DNA from: a virus
Lineage: Duplodnaviria; Caudoviricetes
DNA length: 49,099 bases
Direction: 5' to 3' (one strand)
Virus record (IMG/VR): IMGVR_UViG_3300032318_001710
Span: 1 to 49,099 of that record
The stretch's first letter is position 1, and each line of letters starts with the position of its first letter. The notes below the pieces were generated by a model that saw only the letters and a program-made list of their open reading frames with translations, was not told where the DNA came from and did no database searches. This document shows positions 15,409 through 48,605 of this stretch, in pieces. The position numbers were made by a program, and so were the translations under genes.

Positions 15409-16992
15409 TCAGTCGACTTGTCTTCCATCCCCTTGAGCATTTCTTCCCTCTCCAGAAATATCGGGGGAATTTGCAGACCTTTCAGAATCTCTAGTTCTGG
15501 TTTTCCCTGCCTGTGCTCTTACTTCTGCCTGTGCCTGTGGTTTTAATTCTACAACTTTATCCCCACCATCAATTGGGACCATGCCCATTCTAATTCTAAT
15601 TTCATTAGGGGTCACTACCTGCATCCTTAAATATCGCTCATCAATTTTAGATTGAGTATCTTCATCGGTCAAGGTTAGCTCATTAAATTTAAGAATTAAA
15701 GCATCTGTCATTTCTTCAATAATTTTATTTAATTTCTTTTCTAAATTCATTTGGGCTGGACGGCATACTTGCTCTCTAAATGTTTTATCGGCATCTCTGG
15801 CTACCGCTAGATTTACTCCTTCTGGAGTTCCAATTTTATTAATTGGGACACGGTGAGACAATAGAATTTCATCTCTATTAGATTTGCGATATACGTTAAA
15901 TGAAGATTCCTGAGTGCCTGCCTCAATTGGCTCCATCTTAAATTCAGTCTTAGAATCTGGAGAATCTGGAGGAAGGGGAATATACAAAGATCTGTGATTC
16001 TTGCCTCTTAGTCCAACTTGGAAAAACTCAAGTAATTTACGCTCTGACTCTGTAGAAAGCTTTGCTCCCTTTACTGTAATAATATATCTTGGAACCGCCT
16101 TATTCTCAAAGTAGTCAAGGTTATACTTACCAGCAAATTCATTTCCTGCCATAGCATTTGATGAGGCTACAATATCTGGGATTCCGTAGTAGTTATTTGT
16201 AGGTGTGTATTTCTTAAGATGAATAATTTCGTTAGGTCTATCTAGCCCGCCTGCAATTGGATTCTCTGTTTCTTGATCTCCAAAGGTGCGGAAGAATACT
16301 GCCTTGCCGTAAAGCAATTGAATAAATCCATCACGCAAACGACGAACACGCATTGTTTTTGCGGGAATATGACCTAAGTAACCAATCTTTCCAGCAGATG
16401 TTCTACCAATTTCAATGTAGCCATTTCCTGTTGCTTCAACATCTGTATAGGCCTTGATAAGTGTTTCTGTAAAAGTTTCTTCTTCGTTGCATTCTTCTAG
16501 CCAATCATATAAATCTTGGCGAAGTCTATTTAATTTTCTACGTGCTCTGTCTAATGACTTCTCATCTGAAATATTATCAAACGCTTCTTGCGTCTTACGT
16601 GTTTCAATAAAGTCATGTCCGAGACCAACAATATTTGAAACCTTAGCATTAATTGCTGAATAGTTGTATGGAGAAATTTCGTAAATAGTTGATAGATAAT
16701 CTAGGTTGTATGGGGGCTCAACAAGATCAAACATTGCATAGCCAGTAACTGCTTGTTGTAATAGATTCTGTTGTGTTTCTGTTCCATCAATACCCTGGAA
16801 TCTTTTTTGTAAATCACGATTCATCTTACGACGAAATGCTGGGCTAAGCCCTGAAATTTTTGTTAGTTCGTCTCCGCTTACCTTAAATAGGTCGGTAGTT
16901 GTTTCTTCTCTTGGAGTATTAAACTTCATCCAGTCCGCCACGTTTGAGACTACAATATCTTGAGAGTCATCATCTTCTACAAATTTTGTCAT
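15409..16992 (-). CDS. Portal protein
   Basis: 527 aa; TGNGYIEI, YYGIP, FENKAVP and TPNEIR portal motifs. Confidence 0.93.
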   Translation of the reverse strand: MTKFVEDDDSQDIVVSNVADWMKFNTPREETTTDLFKVSGDELTKISGLSPAFRRKMNRDLQKRFQGIDGTETQQNLLQQAVTGYAMFDLVEPPYNLDYLSTIYEISPYNYSAINAKVSNIVGLGHDFIETRKTQEAFDNISDEKSLDRARRKLNRLRQDLYDWLEECNEEETFTETLIKAYTDVEATGNGYIEIGRTSAGKIGYLGHIPAKTMRVRRLRDGFIQLLYGKAVFFRTFGDQETENPIAGGLDRPNEIIHLKKYTPTNNYYGIPDIVASSNAMAGNEFAGKYNLDYFENKAVPRYIITVKGAKLSTESERKLLEFFQVGLRGKNHRSLYIPLPPDSPDSKTEFKMEPIEAGTQESSFNVYRKSNRDEILLSHRVPINKIGTPEGVNLAVARDADKTFREQVCRPAQMNLEKKLNKIIEEMTDALILKFNELTLTDEDTQSKIDERYLRMQVVTPNEIRIRMGMVPIDGGDKVVELKPQAQAEVRAQAGKTRTRDSERSANSPDISGEGRNAQGDGRQVD

Positions 16993-41628: not shown

Positions 41629-43563
41629 TTAGGCGGAAATGTCTACAATCTCACAATTTCCGTCAGACGTACAGGCTAGAGTCTGTGTTCCGCTTGTTCC
41701 GTCCTCTGTCTCATAGAAAGACAAATCTTCCCAACGAATTTCTTTGGGCATCTTGGCAACCAAAGATTCGTAATCTTCTTTTGTTACTTCTTGGTAAGGA
41801 GCTTGCTTGTATGAGTGATCTGAGTGAGGCAGGAACGAGATACCAGAAACTTCATCAAAGTTCTTATATACCCAGGCTCCTACTTCCATCCATTCATCCT
41901 CTTTAACTGAAACTGTAATTGATGGCTTATGTTCACACCAAGCACGTTGGTAAACTAGCCAAATATTTAAATGCTCGATAGCTGTTAGGTCATTTCTAAC
42001 AATTGCACCCTCTGGTGCTTTTACTGGAAATGAAAATACGTAAGTCTCGTTTGGCTTCATTACGTCATCCTCTACTGGAATTCCGACTTCCTTCAAAAAA
42101 GTAGAAATTGGATCTCCCTTAGAGCCACGAACTGTGCGAATATAATATGGAGAATGCCATGCATGCATTCCTGAAGACACCCCGACCAATTGAGATACTG
42201 TTCCTGATGGCTTTACACATGTAATAGCGGCAGACTCTGGAATCCCAATTTTCCCAGCCTCATCTTTATTCTTTGCTCTTGCTGATTCTCTAAGGGTCAT
42301 TAAAAATGCTTCTAGCGAAACTAGGTCTTCTTTGCCTGACATGAACTTATGTCCAAATTGTCCAGTAAGAGATACTCCTAGTAGACGTTCTTCTTCTGTA
42401 TTGTCTTTCCAAATTTTGCGGAGATATTTAAAGTCTGTAAGCGTTGACTGCCATGTCCCAAGAATAGTAGCAAGCTCAACTTTACGTTCGATATCTTTCT
42501 TTGTATCGTTTTCACGTAGTACGACTTCTGAAAGGTTACAAAACTGATAAGGACGTAGGATAATCTCTGAGCAAGGGTTAGTTCCATAGTGTATATCTGG
42601 ATCTCTTCTTCCATATTTGGCTGCTTGGGCTTGAGCTGCGGCCACATTGTATATACCTCGTTCTCCTGACTTTGAGTCATATAGAGATTTCCATTCTGCA
42701 ATAAACTGCTCCATCTCTGGTTTGCGTGAATACGCAACAGAGTTATTAGATAGTGAACGCTGGGTATTATTCTCCCACCAGTTGCCAGATTTTGCTGCGG
42801 CCATTTCAATATCATTAATATTAGAAAGAGAAATCATAGCTGAGCGACGAACTCCTCCAACTACAACAACTTCACCAATCTTACACATAATGTCATGTGC
42901 TTCAATAGGCTTTAGATTGCGTCCTGCTGCTGATTTAAATTTTGCAACAGTAAAATCAAATAGGTTAACTAATGGTTGTGGGCCAGATGATCTACCGCCC
43001 ATTGTTTTAAGTCTTGCTCCTGCGGGACGTACCTTAGATACATCAATTGCTGGAATTTGTCCTGACCAAAGTAACGCAAGAAGTTCACGGTATGCTTTTG
43101 CCCAACCTTGTTTAGAATCTTCAACCACAATAACTGTTGTTGATTTTTCAAATGTTTCTGGAACGGCAGGAAGCTTATTAACATACTTATACTCAACAGA
43201 GAATCCTACACCTGTACCACACATAAGAATATACATGGTCTCATCAAATGATCTTGGGCTATCTACTGGAACGAATGAACAATTATATCCAGCAACATGA
43301 TCACGATCTAGTGCAGCACCTGCTGTCATGACTGATCGCATTGATGGCATAACATTTCTGTTAAAGACTGCTAACTTAAGCTCTTCTACTAACTTTGATT
43401 CTGGTTCATATGCGTGTTCTTTAAAAAGATGGTTTAGCATAAAGTCAAAATATCTATCTACTGTCTCTCCCCATGTCTCACGACGGTTTTCTTCTGACAG
43501 CCATCTTGCATAACGAGACAATGCAATAAAATTTTCGTATGGATTTTCAATAGTTCTTGACAT
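41629..43563 (-). CDS. nrdJ: Class II (adenosylcobalamin-dependent) ribonucleotide reductase
   Basis: YNCSF, GGVRRSA, TNPCSEI, CNLSEV, CVKPSGTVS and C-terminal C-x5-C; no beta subunit gene nearby. Confidence 0.9.
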   Translation of the reverse strand: MSRTIENPYENFIALSRYARWLSEENRRETWGETVDRYFDFMLNHLFKEHAYEPESKLVEELKLAVFNRNVMPSMRSVMTAGAALDRDHVAGYNCSFVPVDSPRSFDETMYILMCGTGVGFSVEYKYVNKLPAVPETFEKSTTVIVVEDSKQGWAKAYRELLALLWSGQIPAIDVSKVRPAGARLKTMGGRSSGPQPLVNLFDFTVAKFKSAAGRNLKPIEAHDIMCKIGEVVVVGGVRRSAMISLSNINDIEMAAAKSGNWWENNTQRSLSNNSVAYSRKPEMEQFIAEWKSLYDSKSGERGIYNVAAAQAQAAKYGRRDPDIHYGTNPCSEIILRPYQFCNLSEVVLRENDTKKDIERKVELATILGTWQSTLTDFKYLRKIWKDNTEEERLLGVSLTGQFGHKFMSGKEDLVSLEAFLMTLRESARAKNKDEAGKIGIPESAAITCVKPSGTVSQLVGVSSGMHAWHSPYYIRTVRGSKGDPISTFLKEVGIPVEDDVMKPNETYVFSFPVKAPEGAIVRNDLTAIEHLNIWLVYQRAWCEHKPSITVSVKEDEWMEVGAWVYKNFDEVSGISFLPHSDHSYKQAPYQEVTKEDYESLVAKMPKEIRWEDLSFYETEDGTSGTQTLACTSDGNCEIVDISA

Positions 43564-43654
43564 TTTTAAATAACACCTTTTCTCCGCCTTGCGGTTTATG
43601 ACTTTTTAGTTGAAGTCTAATTCTACCAAAGTTTAATTCAAAGGGGAAGGGGTA

Positions 43655-45990: not shown

Positions 45991-46019
45991 TTGACATAGA
46001 ATTTAAGTTATTTTATACT
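45991..46019 (+). promoter_or_regulatory. Near-consensus sigma70 promoter
   Basis: TTGACA (45991-96), 17 nt, TATACT (46014-19). Confidence 0.85.
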
Positions 46020-46025
46020 TCATAT

Positions 46026-46123
46026 GTACTGGTTGTAGCATCCCACAAGATTAAGCTCCCAGTATAACGTGTAGCAATACACTAGGAAAGCCCAATCGGA
46101 TCCGCCTCTGATTGGGATTTTTT
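46026..46123 (+). ncRNA. Stand-alone structured small RNA with preQ1-I-like architecture
   Basis: Bounded by promoter and terminator, no start codon inside; stem GTACTGG/CCAGTAT; GTGTA-GCAA-TACAC GNRA hairpin. Confidence 0.7.
46088..46123. terminator. Bidirectional intrinsic terminator
   Basis: CCCAATCGGA-6nt-TCTGATTGGG, T-run on +, TTT on -; lies between the convergent ncRNA and tRNA units. Confidence 0.8.
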
Positions 46124-46141
46124 CTTTTATTACAATAATTG

Positions 46142-46214
46142 TGCCTTGGGCAGGAATCGAACCTGCGACCTTCACCTTAGAAGGGTGCTACTCTATCCGC
46201 TGAGTTACAAAGGC
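46142..46214 (-). tRNA. tRNA-Arg(TCT)
   Basis: Cloverleaf GCCTTTG...CTTCTAA...GGTTCGATTCC...CAAGGCA; one acceptor mismatch; no encoded CCA. Confidence 0.88.
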
Positions 46215-46511
46215 TTGATTTCTTTTATAATTTCCACGTTCTTGCGTTCTAATCCTATGGCAGTTTGCACAAACAACTTCGCATTTAGATATTTCTTTTA
46301 ATATGGTTTCCCATGATCTAGTGCTTCCAGACACAGCTCTTGAAACATTAAAACTTTTATCTACCAAGTGATCAAACTCCAAAACTCTTGGGTCAGTAGT
46401 ACTACAGTCTTTGCATGAGCTAGATTTTAAAAAGGTCCATAAGTTTTCTGCATTCTTATCTCTATGTAGCTTTTGTCTTGCGTATTGTTTTTCTTTATCT
46501 CTGTATGGCAT
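46188..46511 (-). CDS. HNH endonuclease
   Basis: CKDC...LEFDH...KCEVVCANCHRIRT; 3' end overlaps tRNA-Arg. Confidence 0.85.
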   Translation of the reverse strand: MPYRDKEKQYARQKLHRDKNAENLWTFLKSSSCKDCSTTDPRVLEFDHLVDKSFNVSRAVSGSTRSWETILKEISKCEVVCANCHRIRTQERGNYKRNQAFVTQRIE

Positions 46512-46563
46512 AAGGATATCATATCATGATCTACCACTATTGTATACCTGCATTTAACTCTAG

Positions 46564-46634
46564 AGCGATTAGCGGGAATCGGACCCGCACATTAACCTTG
46601 GCAAGGTTACGCACTACCACTATGCAATAATCGC
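46564..46634 (-). tRNA. tRNA-Gly(GCC)
   Basis: GCGATTA/TAATCGC acceptor; TAACC-TTGCCAA-GGTTA anticodon arm; T-loop TCCGATT. Confidence 0.9.
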
Positions 46635-46638
46635 ATCG

Positions 46639-46711
46639 CTGATCTGGCAGGTCTCGATCCTGCGAACTTTCGATTAACAGTCGAATGCTGTACCAACTCA
46701 GCTACAGATCA
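46639..46711 (-). tRNA. tRNA-Asn(GTT)
   Basis: TGATCTG/CAGATCA acceptor; TTCGA-CTGTTAA-TCGAA anticodon arm; T-loop ATCGAGA. Confidence 0.88.
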
Positions 46712-46785
46712 ATATATTCTATTATACTAAATAAAGTGCGATATGAAAAGTGAGTCCGAAAAAAGTGCGGCGGAAATAGAAGACC

Positions 46786-47067
46786 CTATTTAATCTTTGC
46801 TATCCTTCTCATATAAGTCCTAATACGATGACAATTAGAACATACGATCTCACATTTAGCTATTTCTTCATCAATCTTCTTCTTAGATAAACTCTTGATC
46901 AATTCCATAACATTTGCATGTTTCTGACCTCTTACGTGGTCAAAGTCCATAACATAGTATGGGTAGATCAATTTGCAGTCCATGCAAGGAGTTGAGTTCT
47001 TAAGGTCTCTAATGTATTGCGCCAAATAAGCCTTCTGCTTGGCTATAGAGAGCTTTTCAGCCTTCAT
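46786..47067 (-). CDS. HNH endonuclease
   Basis: CMDC...MDFDH...KCEIVCSNCHRIRT, paralog of 46188..46511. Confidence 0.85.
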   Translation of the reverse strand: MKAEKLSIAKQKAYLAQYIRDLKNSTPCMDCKLIYPYYVMDFDHVRGQKHANVMELIKSLSKKKIDEEIAKCEIVCSNCHRIRTYMRRIAKIK

Positions 47068-47741: not shown

Positions 47742-47771
47742 ATTATAACATTACATATTTTCGTATGTCAA
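47742..47771 (-). promoter_or_regulatory. Consensus sigma70 promoter
   Basis: TTGACA, 18 nt, TATAAT with TG extension on the minus strand. Confidence 0.8.
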
Positions 47772-48169
47772 GAGTTCAATAAATATTTTATAGCATTGTC
47801 CATATTGTCCGTATTATCATTAAACTGACCTAAAGCTAAATTGCAATTGTTGCAAAGTAACCCTCTAACAATGTTTGTGTCGTGACAATGATCTATATGG
47901 GTATCCTTAGTGCTCTTAAATTCATTACTGCATATCTTACACATATTATTTTGGTCAACTAGCATACTGTTAAATTCTTCTTGAGTAATCCCATATCTAC
48001 GTTCTTTAAGATATTCATTAGCTCTCTTTTTATATTTTGCATATCTTTCTGGTTTATCAACTCTCATTTTTCTAGCTGCAGCATTTACACAGTCTTTACA
48101 CTTATTTCTACCGCTATAAAAGTCAGAAATATTTTTTTCTACTCCGCAAACATTACACTCCTTTGACAT
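47768..48169 (-). CDS. Endonuclease VII-type (putative homing) endonuclease
   Basis: N-terminal CxxC..CxxC; RRYGIT, CKIC, HIDHCHDT..VRGLLCNNCN; start MSKEC. Confidence 0.88.
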   Translation of the reverse strand: MSKECNVCGVEKNISDFYSGRNKCKDCVNAAARKMRVDKPERYAKYKKRANEYLKERRYGITQEEFNSMLVDQNNMCKICSNEFKSTKDTHIDHCHDTNIVRGLLCNNCNLALGQFNDNTDNMDNAIKYLLNS

Positions 48170-48605
48170 ATGCAATAGCCTTTCTAATTGTTTCAATATT
48201 GTCTTTAAATCCACCTAATCCAAAGTTGCACTTTCTGCAAAGTAATCCACGAACCTTATTTGTAGTGTGACAATGATCTACTGCAGCTTCCCACCCAATT
48301 TGTATTTTGCATATAGCACATTGATTATTCTGGGCAACCAGCATTTGTGCATAGTCTTCACGAGATATTCCATATTTAATTTTTCTAGATGTTGCAATAG
48401 TTGCAGATTTAGACTTTTCTGGATTCTCTTTATTCCACTTCTTATTCCGCTCTGTAAAGCAAGGGATACAGTATGCAGTCAACCCATCTTGTCTGGATTT
48501 CCACTTATAGAATTCCGATCTTTCTTTTAGTTCCCCGCAAATAGGACACTTTTTGTGCGTCGCATTATTCACCATATAGAACTTGCCTTTTCCAATGTTT
48601 GCCAT
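48153..48605 (-). CDS. Endonuclease VII-type (putative homing) endonuclease
   Basis: CPIC..CIPC; KYGIS, CAIC, VDHCHTTNKVRGLLCRKCN. Confidence 0.88.
   Translation of the reverse strand: MANIGKGKFYMVNNATHKKCPICGELKERSEFYKWKSRQDGLTAYCIPCFTERNKKWNKENPEKSKSATIATSRKIKYGISREDYAQMLVAQNNQCAICKIQIGWEAAVDHCHTTNKVRGLLCRKCNFGLGGFKDNIETIRKAIAYVKGV

Follow-up and report, generated by a model that had tools for sequence, protein, structure and literature searches.

The stretch of DNA analysed here (the window; 49,099 nt of the IMG/VR virus record IMGVR_UViG_3300032318_001710) is a fragment of a tailed-phage genome. On its minus strand it carries the gene of a class II (B12-type) ribonucleotide reductase (RNR; 41629..43563), a candidate regulated gene in what follows, whose product shares 66% identity with enzymes of Streptomyces phages. 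The Streptomyces phages with a similar RNR belong, by record, to the Stanwilliamsviridae, and Streptomyces phages have a transglycosylase, glycosyltransferase and RNR neighbourhood similar to that of the window. Because both the enzyme and the gene neighbourhood resemble those of Streptomyces phages, the host of the window phage is probably actinobacterial. Contigs at least 99% alike to the window were found in an RNA run recorded as freshwater.

On the plus strand, positions 45991..46123 hold a compact promoter-to-terminator unit. A host sigma-70-type promoter, with the -35 hexamer TTGACA (45991..45996) and the -10 hexamer TATACT (46014..46019) separated by 17 nt, shows 11 of 12 consensus matches and predicts a transcription start at G46026. 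This is the first base of the hairpin P1 (46026..46065; 46026-46032 pairs with 46059-46065), whose apical region is variable. It is followed by P2 (46069..46082), a variable hairpin with a GCAA tetraloop, and by P3 (46091..46123), an intrinsic-terminator hairpin in which 46091-46100 pairs with 46107-46116 and which leads into a U tract. The P3 loop UCCGCC (46101..46106) is complementary to GGCGGA and constitutes the predicted seed of the RNA. With a run of A residues 5' of its stem, P3 may have a second role as a stop for the convergent tRNA transcript. No ATG occurs between the predicted start at 46026 and the terminator, and the fold of 46024-46125 has a z score of -4.76. A first-pass annotation of the locus had described a consensus promoter, about 100 nt lacking a start codon and an intrinsic terminator, and we find all three as described; it had read the sequence of the element correctly but overlooked the terminator loop, which is its most conserved part.

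The unit faces a minus-strand tRNA cluster (46141..46711) comprising tRNA-Arg(TCT), an HNH ORF, tRNA-Gly(GCC) and tRNA-Asn(GTT). The convergence on a cluster containing tRNA-Asn had been pointed out before and stands, but the nearest gene is tRNA-Arg(TCT) (46141-46214), with tRNA-Asn third and about 510 nt away. The first tRNA downstream of the RNA is not constant among relatives, in which the RNA is followed by antisense tRNAs, antisense ORFs or a sense gene; the earlier statement that no sense gene lies downstream is correct for the window, but many relatives have one with its own -10 box. Four HNH/endonuclease VII-type ORFs are found on the minus strand in or beside the tRNA cluster (46188-46511, 46786-47067, 47768-48214 and 48153-48605), the first of which lies between tRNA-Arg and tRNA-Gly and is variable among relatives. 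An ORF of about 90 aa, missing from the window, is present after P3 in many relatives (L005, L010, L024, L086, L114 and others), where it is often apparently leaderless and has its own -10 box. At 46735-46775 on the plus strand, three AAAGTG(C/A)G copies follow each other in tandem at a spacing of about 14-15 nt, directly upstream of a promoter-like site that belongs to the tRNA cluster; they are iteron- or operator-like, and 88 of 160 loci selected by the transglycosylase contain the motif.

In a scan of the window alone, neither promoter-like sites (29 versus 23.5 in shuffles) nor terminators (3 versus 3.4) exceeded chance. Such a single-window scan is insufficient, and the unit at this locus is beyond chance because it is conserved across homologs. 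A promoter-like site lies upstream of the RNA in 129 of 137 distinct parsed homologs, at 4-8 nt from P1 in 126, and in most of the eight homologs without such a site the RNA is placed 3' of a small ORF. At five loci (L131, L134, L181, L186 and L573) the RNA has no adjacent promoter and occupies the 3' region of an ORF that is small and leaderless, which suggests a 3'-UTR-derived form. The element is a conserved structured non-coding element of about 100 bases, and it is likely transcribed as a small RNA of about 100 nt. The element's phage was present at small shares in 11 RNA runs, and contig cover was inspected in four. Summed contig depth in run X1 was 52-193 over 46014-46115 versus 6-12 just upstream, with like peaks at tRNAs; runs X2 and X3 were flat over the element and X5 had no cover there. 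RNA-run contigs give no start, strand or level, and we left them out of the evidence for transcription.

Judged by sequence matches, the RNA appears to be carried by hundreds of related uncultured phages that are kin to Streptomyces phages. A 20-base pattern from the 5' end of the RNA was found at 69 viral loci, and the apex was identical in all 39 distinct contexts among them that extend to the terminator; a terminator-derived pattern was found at at least 121 loci, of an estimated 650 stretches. To keep either RNA end out of the selection, 80 loci were chosen via the neighbouring transglycosylase, and the model R1 had a match in 71 of them. Eight of the nine R1-negative loci end early (two judged by position in relatives), and at the ninth the RNA lies further along the contig, L017 and L193 being on one contig. 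The RNA is single-copy in the records searched. It is absent from Paradiddles, in which R1 had no match, and from G006 and G007, two near-complete records where a plain terminator stands instead.

Rfam, which the first-pass annotation had named as a check, returned no family for the element: at the gathering score the window contained just three tRNAs, and five chance matches around the element had E values of 1.4-8. Among cultured phages, blastn gave no record covering 80% of the query. Bacterial genomes gave five matches, two of which are contigs of this phage clade (L489 and L492, binned in a Saccharibacteria and a Bacteroidia genome, respectively) and are likely misbinned. Three Prescottella matches were discarded as a terminator after a sigma-factor-like gene (identity by eye), with the structure of the RNA absent. 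G016 and G017 (L494 and L497) represent an unrelated phage of 54% GC, in which a promoter and a long hairpin with a second UCCGCC-containing loop accompany a matching P3 apex (35.6 bits) at about position 1500 of each locus, upstream of replication-like genes; GGCGGA is not enriched in their leaders. At L153, L195 and L616, P3 stands alone directly after an ORF; on the contig of L616 there is one more match, L617, at a distance of about 1 kb. None of the open papers covered by title and abstract start describes the RNA, subscription papers being outside this scope. Motif searches of four supplementary files belonging to PMC10690425 came back empty, and the alignments of that paper may still hold the RNA.

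Covariation was assessed in a 62-sequence alignment against shuffles that ignore kinship. P1 showed changes on both sides at 8 of 11 pairs, each of the five outer pairs having changed in a compensatory way, and its covariation score was reached by 0 of 500 shuffles. The covariation test on phage homologs that had been suggested earlier thus came out in favour of the RNA, and the suggestion of a stand-alone structured non-coding RNA, perhaps of a new class, agrees with the promoter, the covarying stems, the terminator and the lack of an Rfam match. P2 varies freely and is missing in the shortest members. An AUCCCAC apical loop occurs in just 60 of 137 homologs, and an antiterminator formed by this loop and the 3' strand of P3 was rejected on that count. 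HDV-like and other ribozyme folds were dropped by eye against their consensus. A bulged helix near the 5' end and, in a few members, the sequence GUCGAAG, which fits the GNCGAAN0-1G given for the Y RNAs YrlA and YrlB in the excerpt of PMC4201824, recall these RNAs, but a tRNA-like module is absent. We discarded this reading, as GUCGAAG occurs in 1 of 111 distinct sequences and a Ro60/TROVE gene within about 4 kb in 0 of 5 records, three of them at least 90% complete.

A direct parse was applied to 142 distinct sequences, all picked by the exact P3 apex, and was passed by 137; it required the bulge U and the UC before the 3' strand of P1. In these 137 the P1 core consists of a purine-pyrimidine pair, a bulged U with zero to two further bases, a G-C pair, an optional looped-out base and an A-U pair. 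The first pair is G-C in 131 of the 137, the pair above A-U is G-C in 85, G-U in 42 and G-A in 10, and the next pair is canonical in 134, with six pair types. In the window (46032..46059, plus strand) the core is made up of G46032-C46059, the bulged U46033 (plus U46034), G46035-C46058, the looped-out U46036, A46037-U46057 and G46038-C46056, and the A46037-U46057 pair is predicted to take up U46033 in a triple. By the definition in the excerpt of PMC6189040, the arginine sandwich motif found in TAR and 7SK is composed of a Watson-Crick pair followed by a bulged pyrimidine, a G-C pair and an A-U pair taking the triple; the order of Watson-Crick pair, bulged U, G-C and A-U matches this definition in 137 of 142 sequences, with bulges of 1-3 nt. 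The likeness is one of secondary structure alone, and by analogy arginine might be bound at the bulge. Unlike retroviral TAR and 7SK, the element is a prokaryotic phage RNA, its triple is a predicted one, and one subclade dispenses with the motif: a plain hairpin replaces the bulge in 11 of the 40 groups that make up a second locus set. The bulge is accessory, because this subclade is without it. In members of the subclade (L391, L512-L515, L520, L524, L535 and L538), P2 contains GCGGAU, the complement of their own P3 apex, and a self-masking fold is possible there.

The first-pass annotation had interpreted the element as resembling a preQ1-I aptamer with inserted hairpins, acting in trans or as a sponge for preQ1, preQ0 or a related purine. 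Part of this likeness is real. The excerpts of PMC11625349 and PMC10622847 name G5, U6, C7, G8, A10 and G11 as features of preQ1-I RNAs, as well as a UC or AC that precedes P1's 3' strand. The 5' part of the element reads G-U-Y-G-(N)-A-G, with UC before the 3' strand of P1, and the short stem of 5-6 bp closed by G-C, with U following, is present as well (G-C in 131 of 137, the U and UC being required by the parse). The remainder of the proposed layout did not hold. UAG and CUA are unlinked across the 137 homologs (both in 26, UAG alone in 39, CUA alone in 35, neither in 37), covariation is absent between the partners of the supposed pseudoknot, and the tail contains a complement to the L1 trimer in 27. 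A run of A residues followed by C-(U/A)-A occurs in 0 of 137 distinct homologs, as does the form AAAC(U/A)A; a run of four A is present in 42 and AUAA in 44. N, the base expected to pair at the pseudoknot end, is absent in 71. G-A-G is predicted to pair with the adjacent Y-U-C, and a paired state is the better reading for the supposed specificity C. RF00522 had no match at the locus even at an E value of 10, and its eight weak matches over five records include none at the RNA and none above the cut-off. QueC and TGT are absent from 5 of 5 complete phage records, and tRNA-Asn(GUU) also occurs in G007, which has no RNA. Unlike the preQ1-I riboswitch (RF00522), the element thus has no H-type pseudoknot, no conserved A-rich L3, no downstream queuosine gene and no model score, and we consider a preQ1- or preQ0-binding aptamer or sponge highly improbable.

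What the homologs do hold constant is the P3 loop. UCCGCC is present in 37 of 38 distinct copies from the loci chosen by the neighbouring transglycosylase, and all six of its bases have a modelled unpaired probability of 1.0. P3 is paired in 100% of the cells of the 62-sequence alignment. Its lower stem has 17 different forms among the parsed sequences, and distant members keep UCCGCC on wholly different stems; near invariance extends to the three loop-closing pairs. A UCCGCC-GGCGGA duplex of six pairs has a predicted energy of -11.2 kcal/mol. The seed comprises 6-7 bases only, and the flanking bases show no selection for longer pairing (the 3' flank is U in 8 of 59). In the sole loop variant (L258) the RNR leader still contains GGCGGA, and no case of loop and target changing in compensation came to light.

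The complement of this loop recurs in leaders of the same phages. In the window, GGCGGA (43588-43583, minus strand) lies in a small CCGC/GCGG hairpin of the RNR leader (43583..43594), 19 nt before the ATG and upstream of an ordinary Shine-Dalgarno sequence. Within the clade, 47 of 47 distinct RNR leaders contain it, away from the position of the Shine-Dalgarno sequence, and it is missing from the RNR leader of Paradiddles. Of 48 distinct DnaE leaders 42 contain the word, which here occupies the Shine-Dalgarno position and has contexts as different as the end of a small ORF, the region after a tRNA-like stretch and plain intergenic DNA. At DnaB it is present in 28 of 40 cases as Gly-Gly codons of the upstream gene. 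It stands 5' of four small genes of unknown function, and the leaders of a 68-aa gene contain it in 26 of 38 cases, in other reading frames. Across 1448 called leaders of 13 records, with start codons set by a simple caller and orthologs non-independent, GGCGGA was observed 58 times versus 10.0 expected, which places it at the top of the 448 hexamers that contain at least five G+C, by count as well as by gene families. Paradiddles had 0 versus 0.8 expected in 169 leaders. The word is strand-specific (58 sense versus 1 antisense), and a double-stranded DNA site was rejected for this reason. GGAGGA is more enriched (70 leaders), and GGGGGA occurs in 15. Since 25 of the 58 sites are spaced 5-6 nt from the start codon, these may be plain weak Shine-Dalgarno sequences, and GGCGGA sites swap with GGTGG or AGGAG in orthologs.

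Loss of the RNA and loss of the word tend to coincide. Over seven gene families, the word is kept at 54 of 67 sites in 11 RNA-positive records versus 5 of 14 in G006 and G007. These two records fall into one DnaB clade with G002 and G010, and the RNA-less records share one replacement terminator. In G007 the word persists in front of RNR and DnaE, in G006 in front of three small genes. A second sample, 80 loci of the clade of G006 and G007, gave 40 groups, four of which were dropped (three truncated, one without RNR). Here, GGCGGA is present in the RNR leader of 32 of 32 RNA-positive groups versus 2 of 4 RNA-negative groups (nominal P 0.0095), and the remaining two RNA-negative groups have AGCGGA. 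This substitution hits a base in the loop of the leader hairpin, the one that the hairpin does not need. As G006 and G007 were chosen partly because they are without some sites, the co-loss P values of 0.0015 and 0.0095 are nominal. The RNA was probably lost in one event in one lineage, and the comparison suggests that the word decays in phages that have lost it.

The element has the hallmarks of a trans-acting base-pairing small RNA in that it combines a promoter and a terminator with a covarying structure and has no ORF; in addition, its conserved, single-stranded seed is complementary to conserved translation-initiation sites. We propose, with a probability of roughly 0.55, that it acts in trans, with the terminator loop pairing with GGCGGA in the ribosome footprint and thereby likely lowering translation of the tagged replication genes. 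The unit would give rise to a small RNA of about 100 nt with an exposed UCCGCC loop, the loop would pair with GGCGGA in leaders of the phage's own replication genes, and the pairing would likely block ribosome loading there. The core of the Shine-Dalgarno sequence is GGAGG, of which GGCGG would be a one-letter variant, just as the RNA loop would be a one-letter variant of the anti-Shine-Dalgarno sequence. The host ribosome would still be able to use GGCGG, and the RNA loop would pair with GGCGGA perfectly, so that tagged phage messages might be picked out and GGAGG messages spared. DNA replication could in this way be damped or timed with no need for a chaperone, similarly to the action of the C-rich loops of 6C RNA. 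The TAR-like bulge of P1 likely offers an arginine-rich protein a place to dock, and this protein would tune the stability or activity of the RNA. The data show the unit, its covariation, the near-invariant loop and the leader word, from which we infer transcription, the pairing, the sign of its effect, its timing and the role of the bulge. The strong, early-type promoter fits a repression of replication genes awkwardly.

A doubtful but serious competitor holds that loop and leader word are not partners at all: GGCGGA would be a usable Shine-Dalgarno variant or a protein site, and the RNA a protein decoy or scaffold built from the P3 apex and the bulge, unless its loop pairs with a host RNA. 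The near invariance of the three loop-closing pairs exceeds the needs of a seed and speaks for it, as do the many sites at Shine-Dalgarno spacing, the GGTGG and AGGAG swaps in orthologs and the retention of the two main sites in G007, which has no RNA. It does not readily account for the enrichment of GGCGGA above 447 other GC-rich hexamers, including GGGGGA, which is expected to be the better anti-Shine-Dalgarno pairer, nor for an RNR site that is off Shine-Dalgarno spacing yet invariant in RNA-positive phages. The protein that a decoy would bind is not apparent either, as two crude scans of phage ORFs revealed no conserved arginine-rich phage protein. By another reading, which we regard as unlikely, recoded GGCGG, a phage-encoded mimic of the anti-Shine-Dalgarno sequence and the TAR-like module would make up a private translation-initiation code, a natural orthogonal pair, in which the module docks on an arginine-rich host or ribosomal protein and steers ribosomes to or from the tagged messages.

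The RNA could also pair with GGCGGA and activate, as an adaptor or private anti-Shine-Dalgarno sequence that opens a hairpin or delivers messages to the ribosome, with the bulge docked on an arginine-rich ribosomal or host protein. An early host-type promoter would suit targets that are needed early, the word in the RNR leader sits in a small cis hairpin that pairing would open, and the P3 apex is like the 3' end of 16S rRNA. RNA-less phages keep some of the sites, however, which makes the RNA dispensable for translation, pairing at the Shine-Dalgarno position of DnaE should exclude the 30S subunit, and one subclade has no bulge; activation seems decidedly unlikely to us. Repression is preferred over it because the RNA-less phages keep working sites and the DnaE word takes the Shine-Dalgarno position. 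Very unlikely, finally, is a role in cis, as a bidirectional terminator or attenuator between convergent units in which a protein on the P1 bulge controls read-through in the manner of Tat/TAR or N/boxB. Promoter, bulged hairpin, GNRA hairpin and terminator do stand in series, some members combine a weak U tract with a downstream sense gene, and at two loci (L153 and L195) P3 occurs alone. Against this, the RNA is followed variously by antisense tRNAs, antisense ORFs or a gene that has a -10 box to itself, a terminator can do without a fixed loop and that of the RNA-less phages is plain, and a conserved antiterminator pairing is missing, AUCCCAC being confined to 60 of 137 homologs.

The proposed repression in trans has counterparts among known RNAs. 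Members of the 6C family have runs of six or more C in two hairpin loops. The element contains no two six-C loops, and Rfam gave no 6C match. According to the excerpt of PMC6486639, 6C RNA represses dnaB via a C-rich loop. Similarly to this small RNA of Actinobacteria (B11), the element would direct a C-rich hairpin loop against G-rich ribosome-binding sites, require no chaperone and have dnaB among its targets, and the host phylum is likely shared. Unlike 6C, which is chromosomal and has two poly-C loops, it is phage-encoded, has a single UCCGCC loop on its terminator and matches the phage's own genes. The c4 antisense RNA of phages P1 and P7, as portrayed in the excerpt of PMC12197685, is likewise phage-encoded, and its short loop sequences act in trans on its own mRNA close to ribosome-binding sites. 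Whereas c4 belongs to an antirepressor operon of temperate phages, the present matches involve no fewer than seven gene families, among them RNR, DnaE and DnaB, and Rfam gave no c4 match. By analogy, the RNA might work like both 6C and c4, being a member of neither.

If the proposal is correct, a widespread clade of actinobacterial-type phages has its genes for nucleotide and DNA synthesis under joint control, in a single regulon that an RNA defines through a one-letter recoding of the ribosome-binding word. To our knowledge, few trans-acting small RNAs are known from virulent-type phages. The element would also represent a prokaryotic TAR/7SK-type arginine-sandwich bulge that is kept despite heavy covariation of its stem. 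Both modules are short and suited to tests that do not involve culturing the phage.

Two minor observations concern start codons and leaders. Inside the 527-aa ORF 15412-16992, a further GGCGGA (16939-16934, minus strand) lies four bases before an in-frame ATG, also in G003, and may mark the true start of this ORF and a further target. G001-G012 and G015 show a strong enrichment of AACGAAAG-type words in their leaders, 5' of start codons, with CGAAAG observed 74 times versus 4.3 expected.
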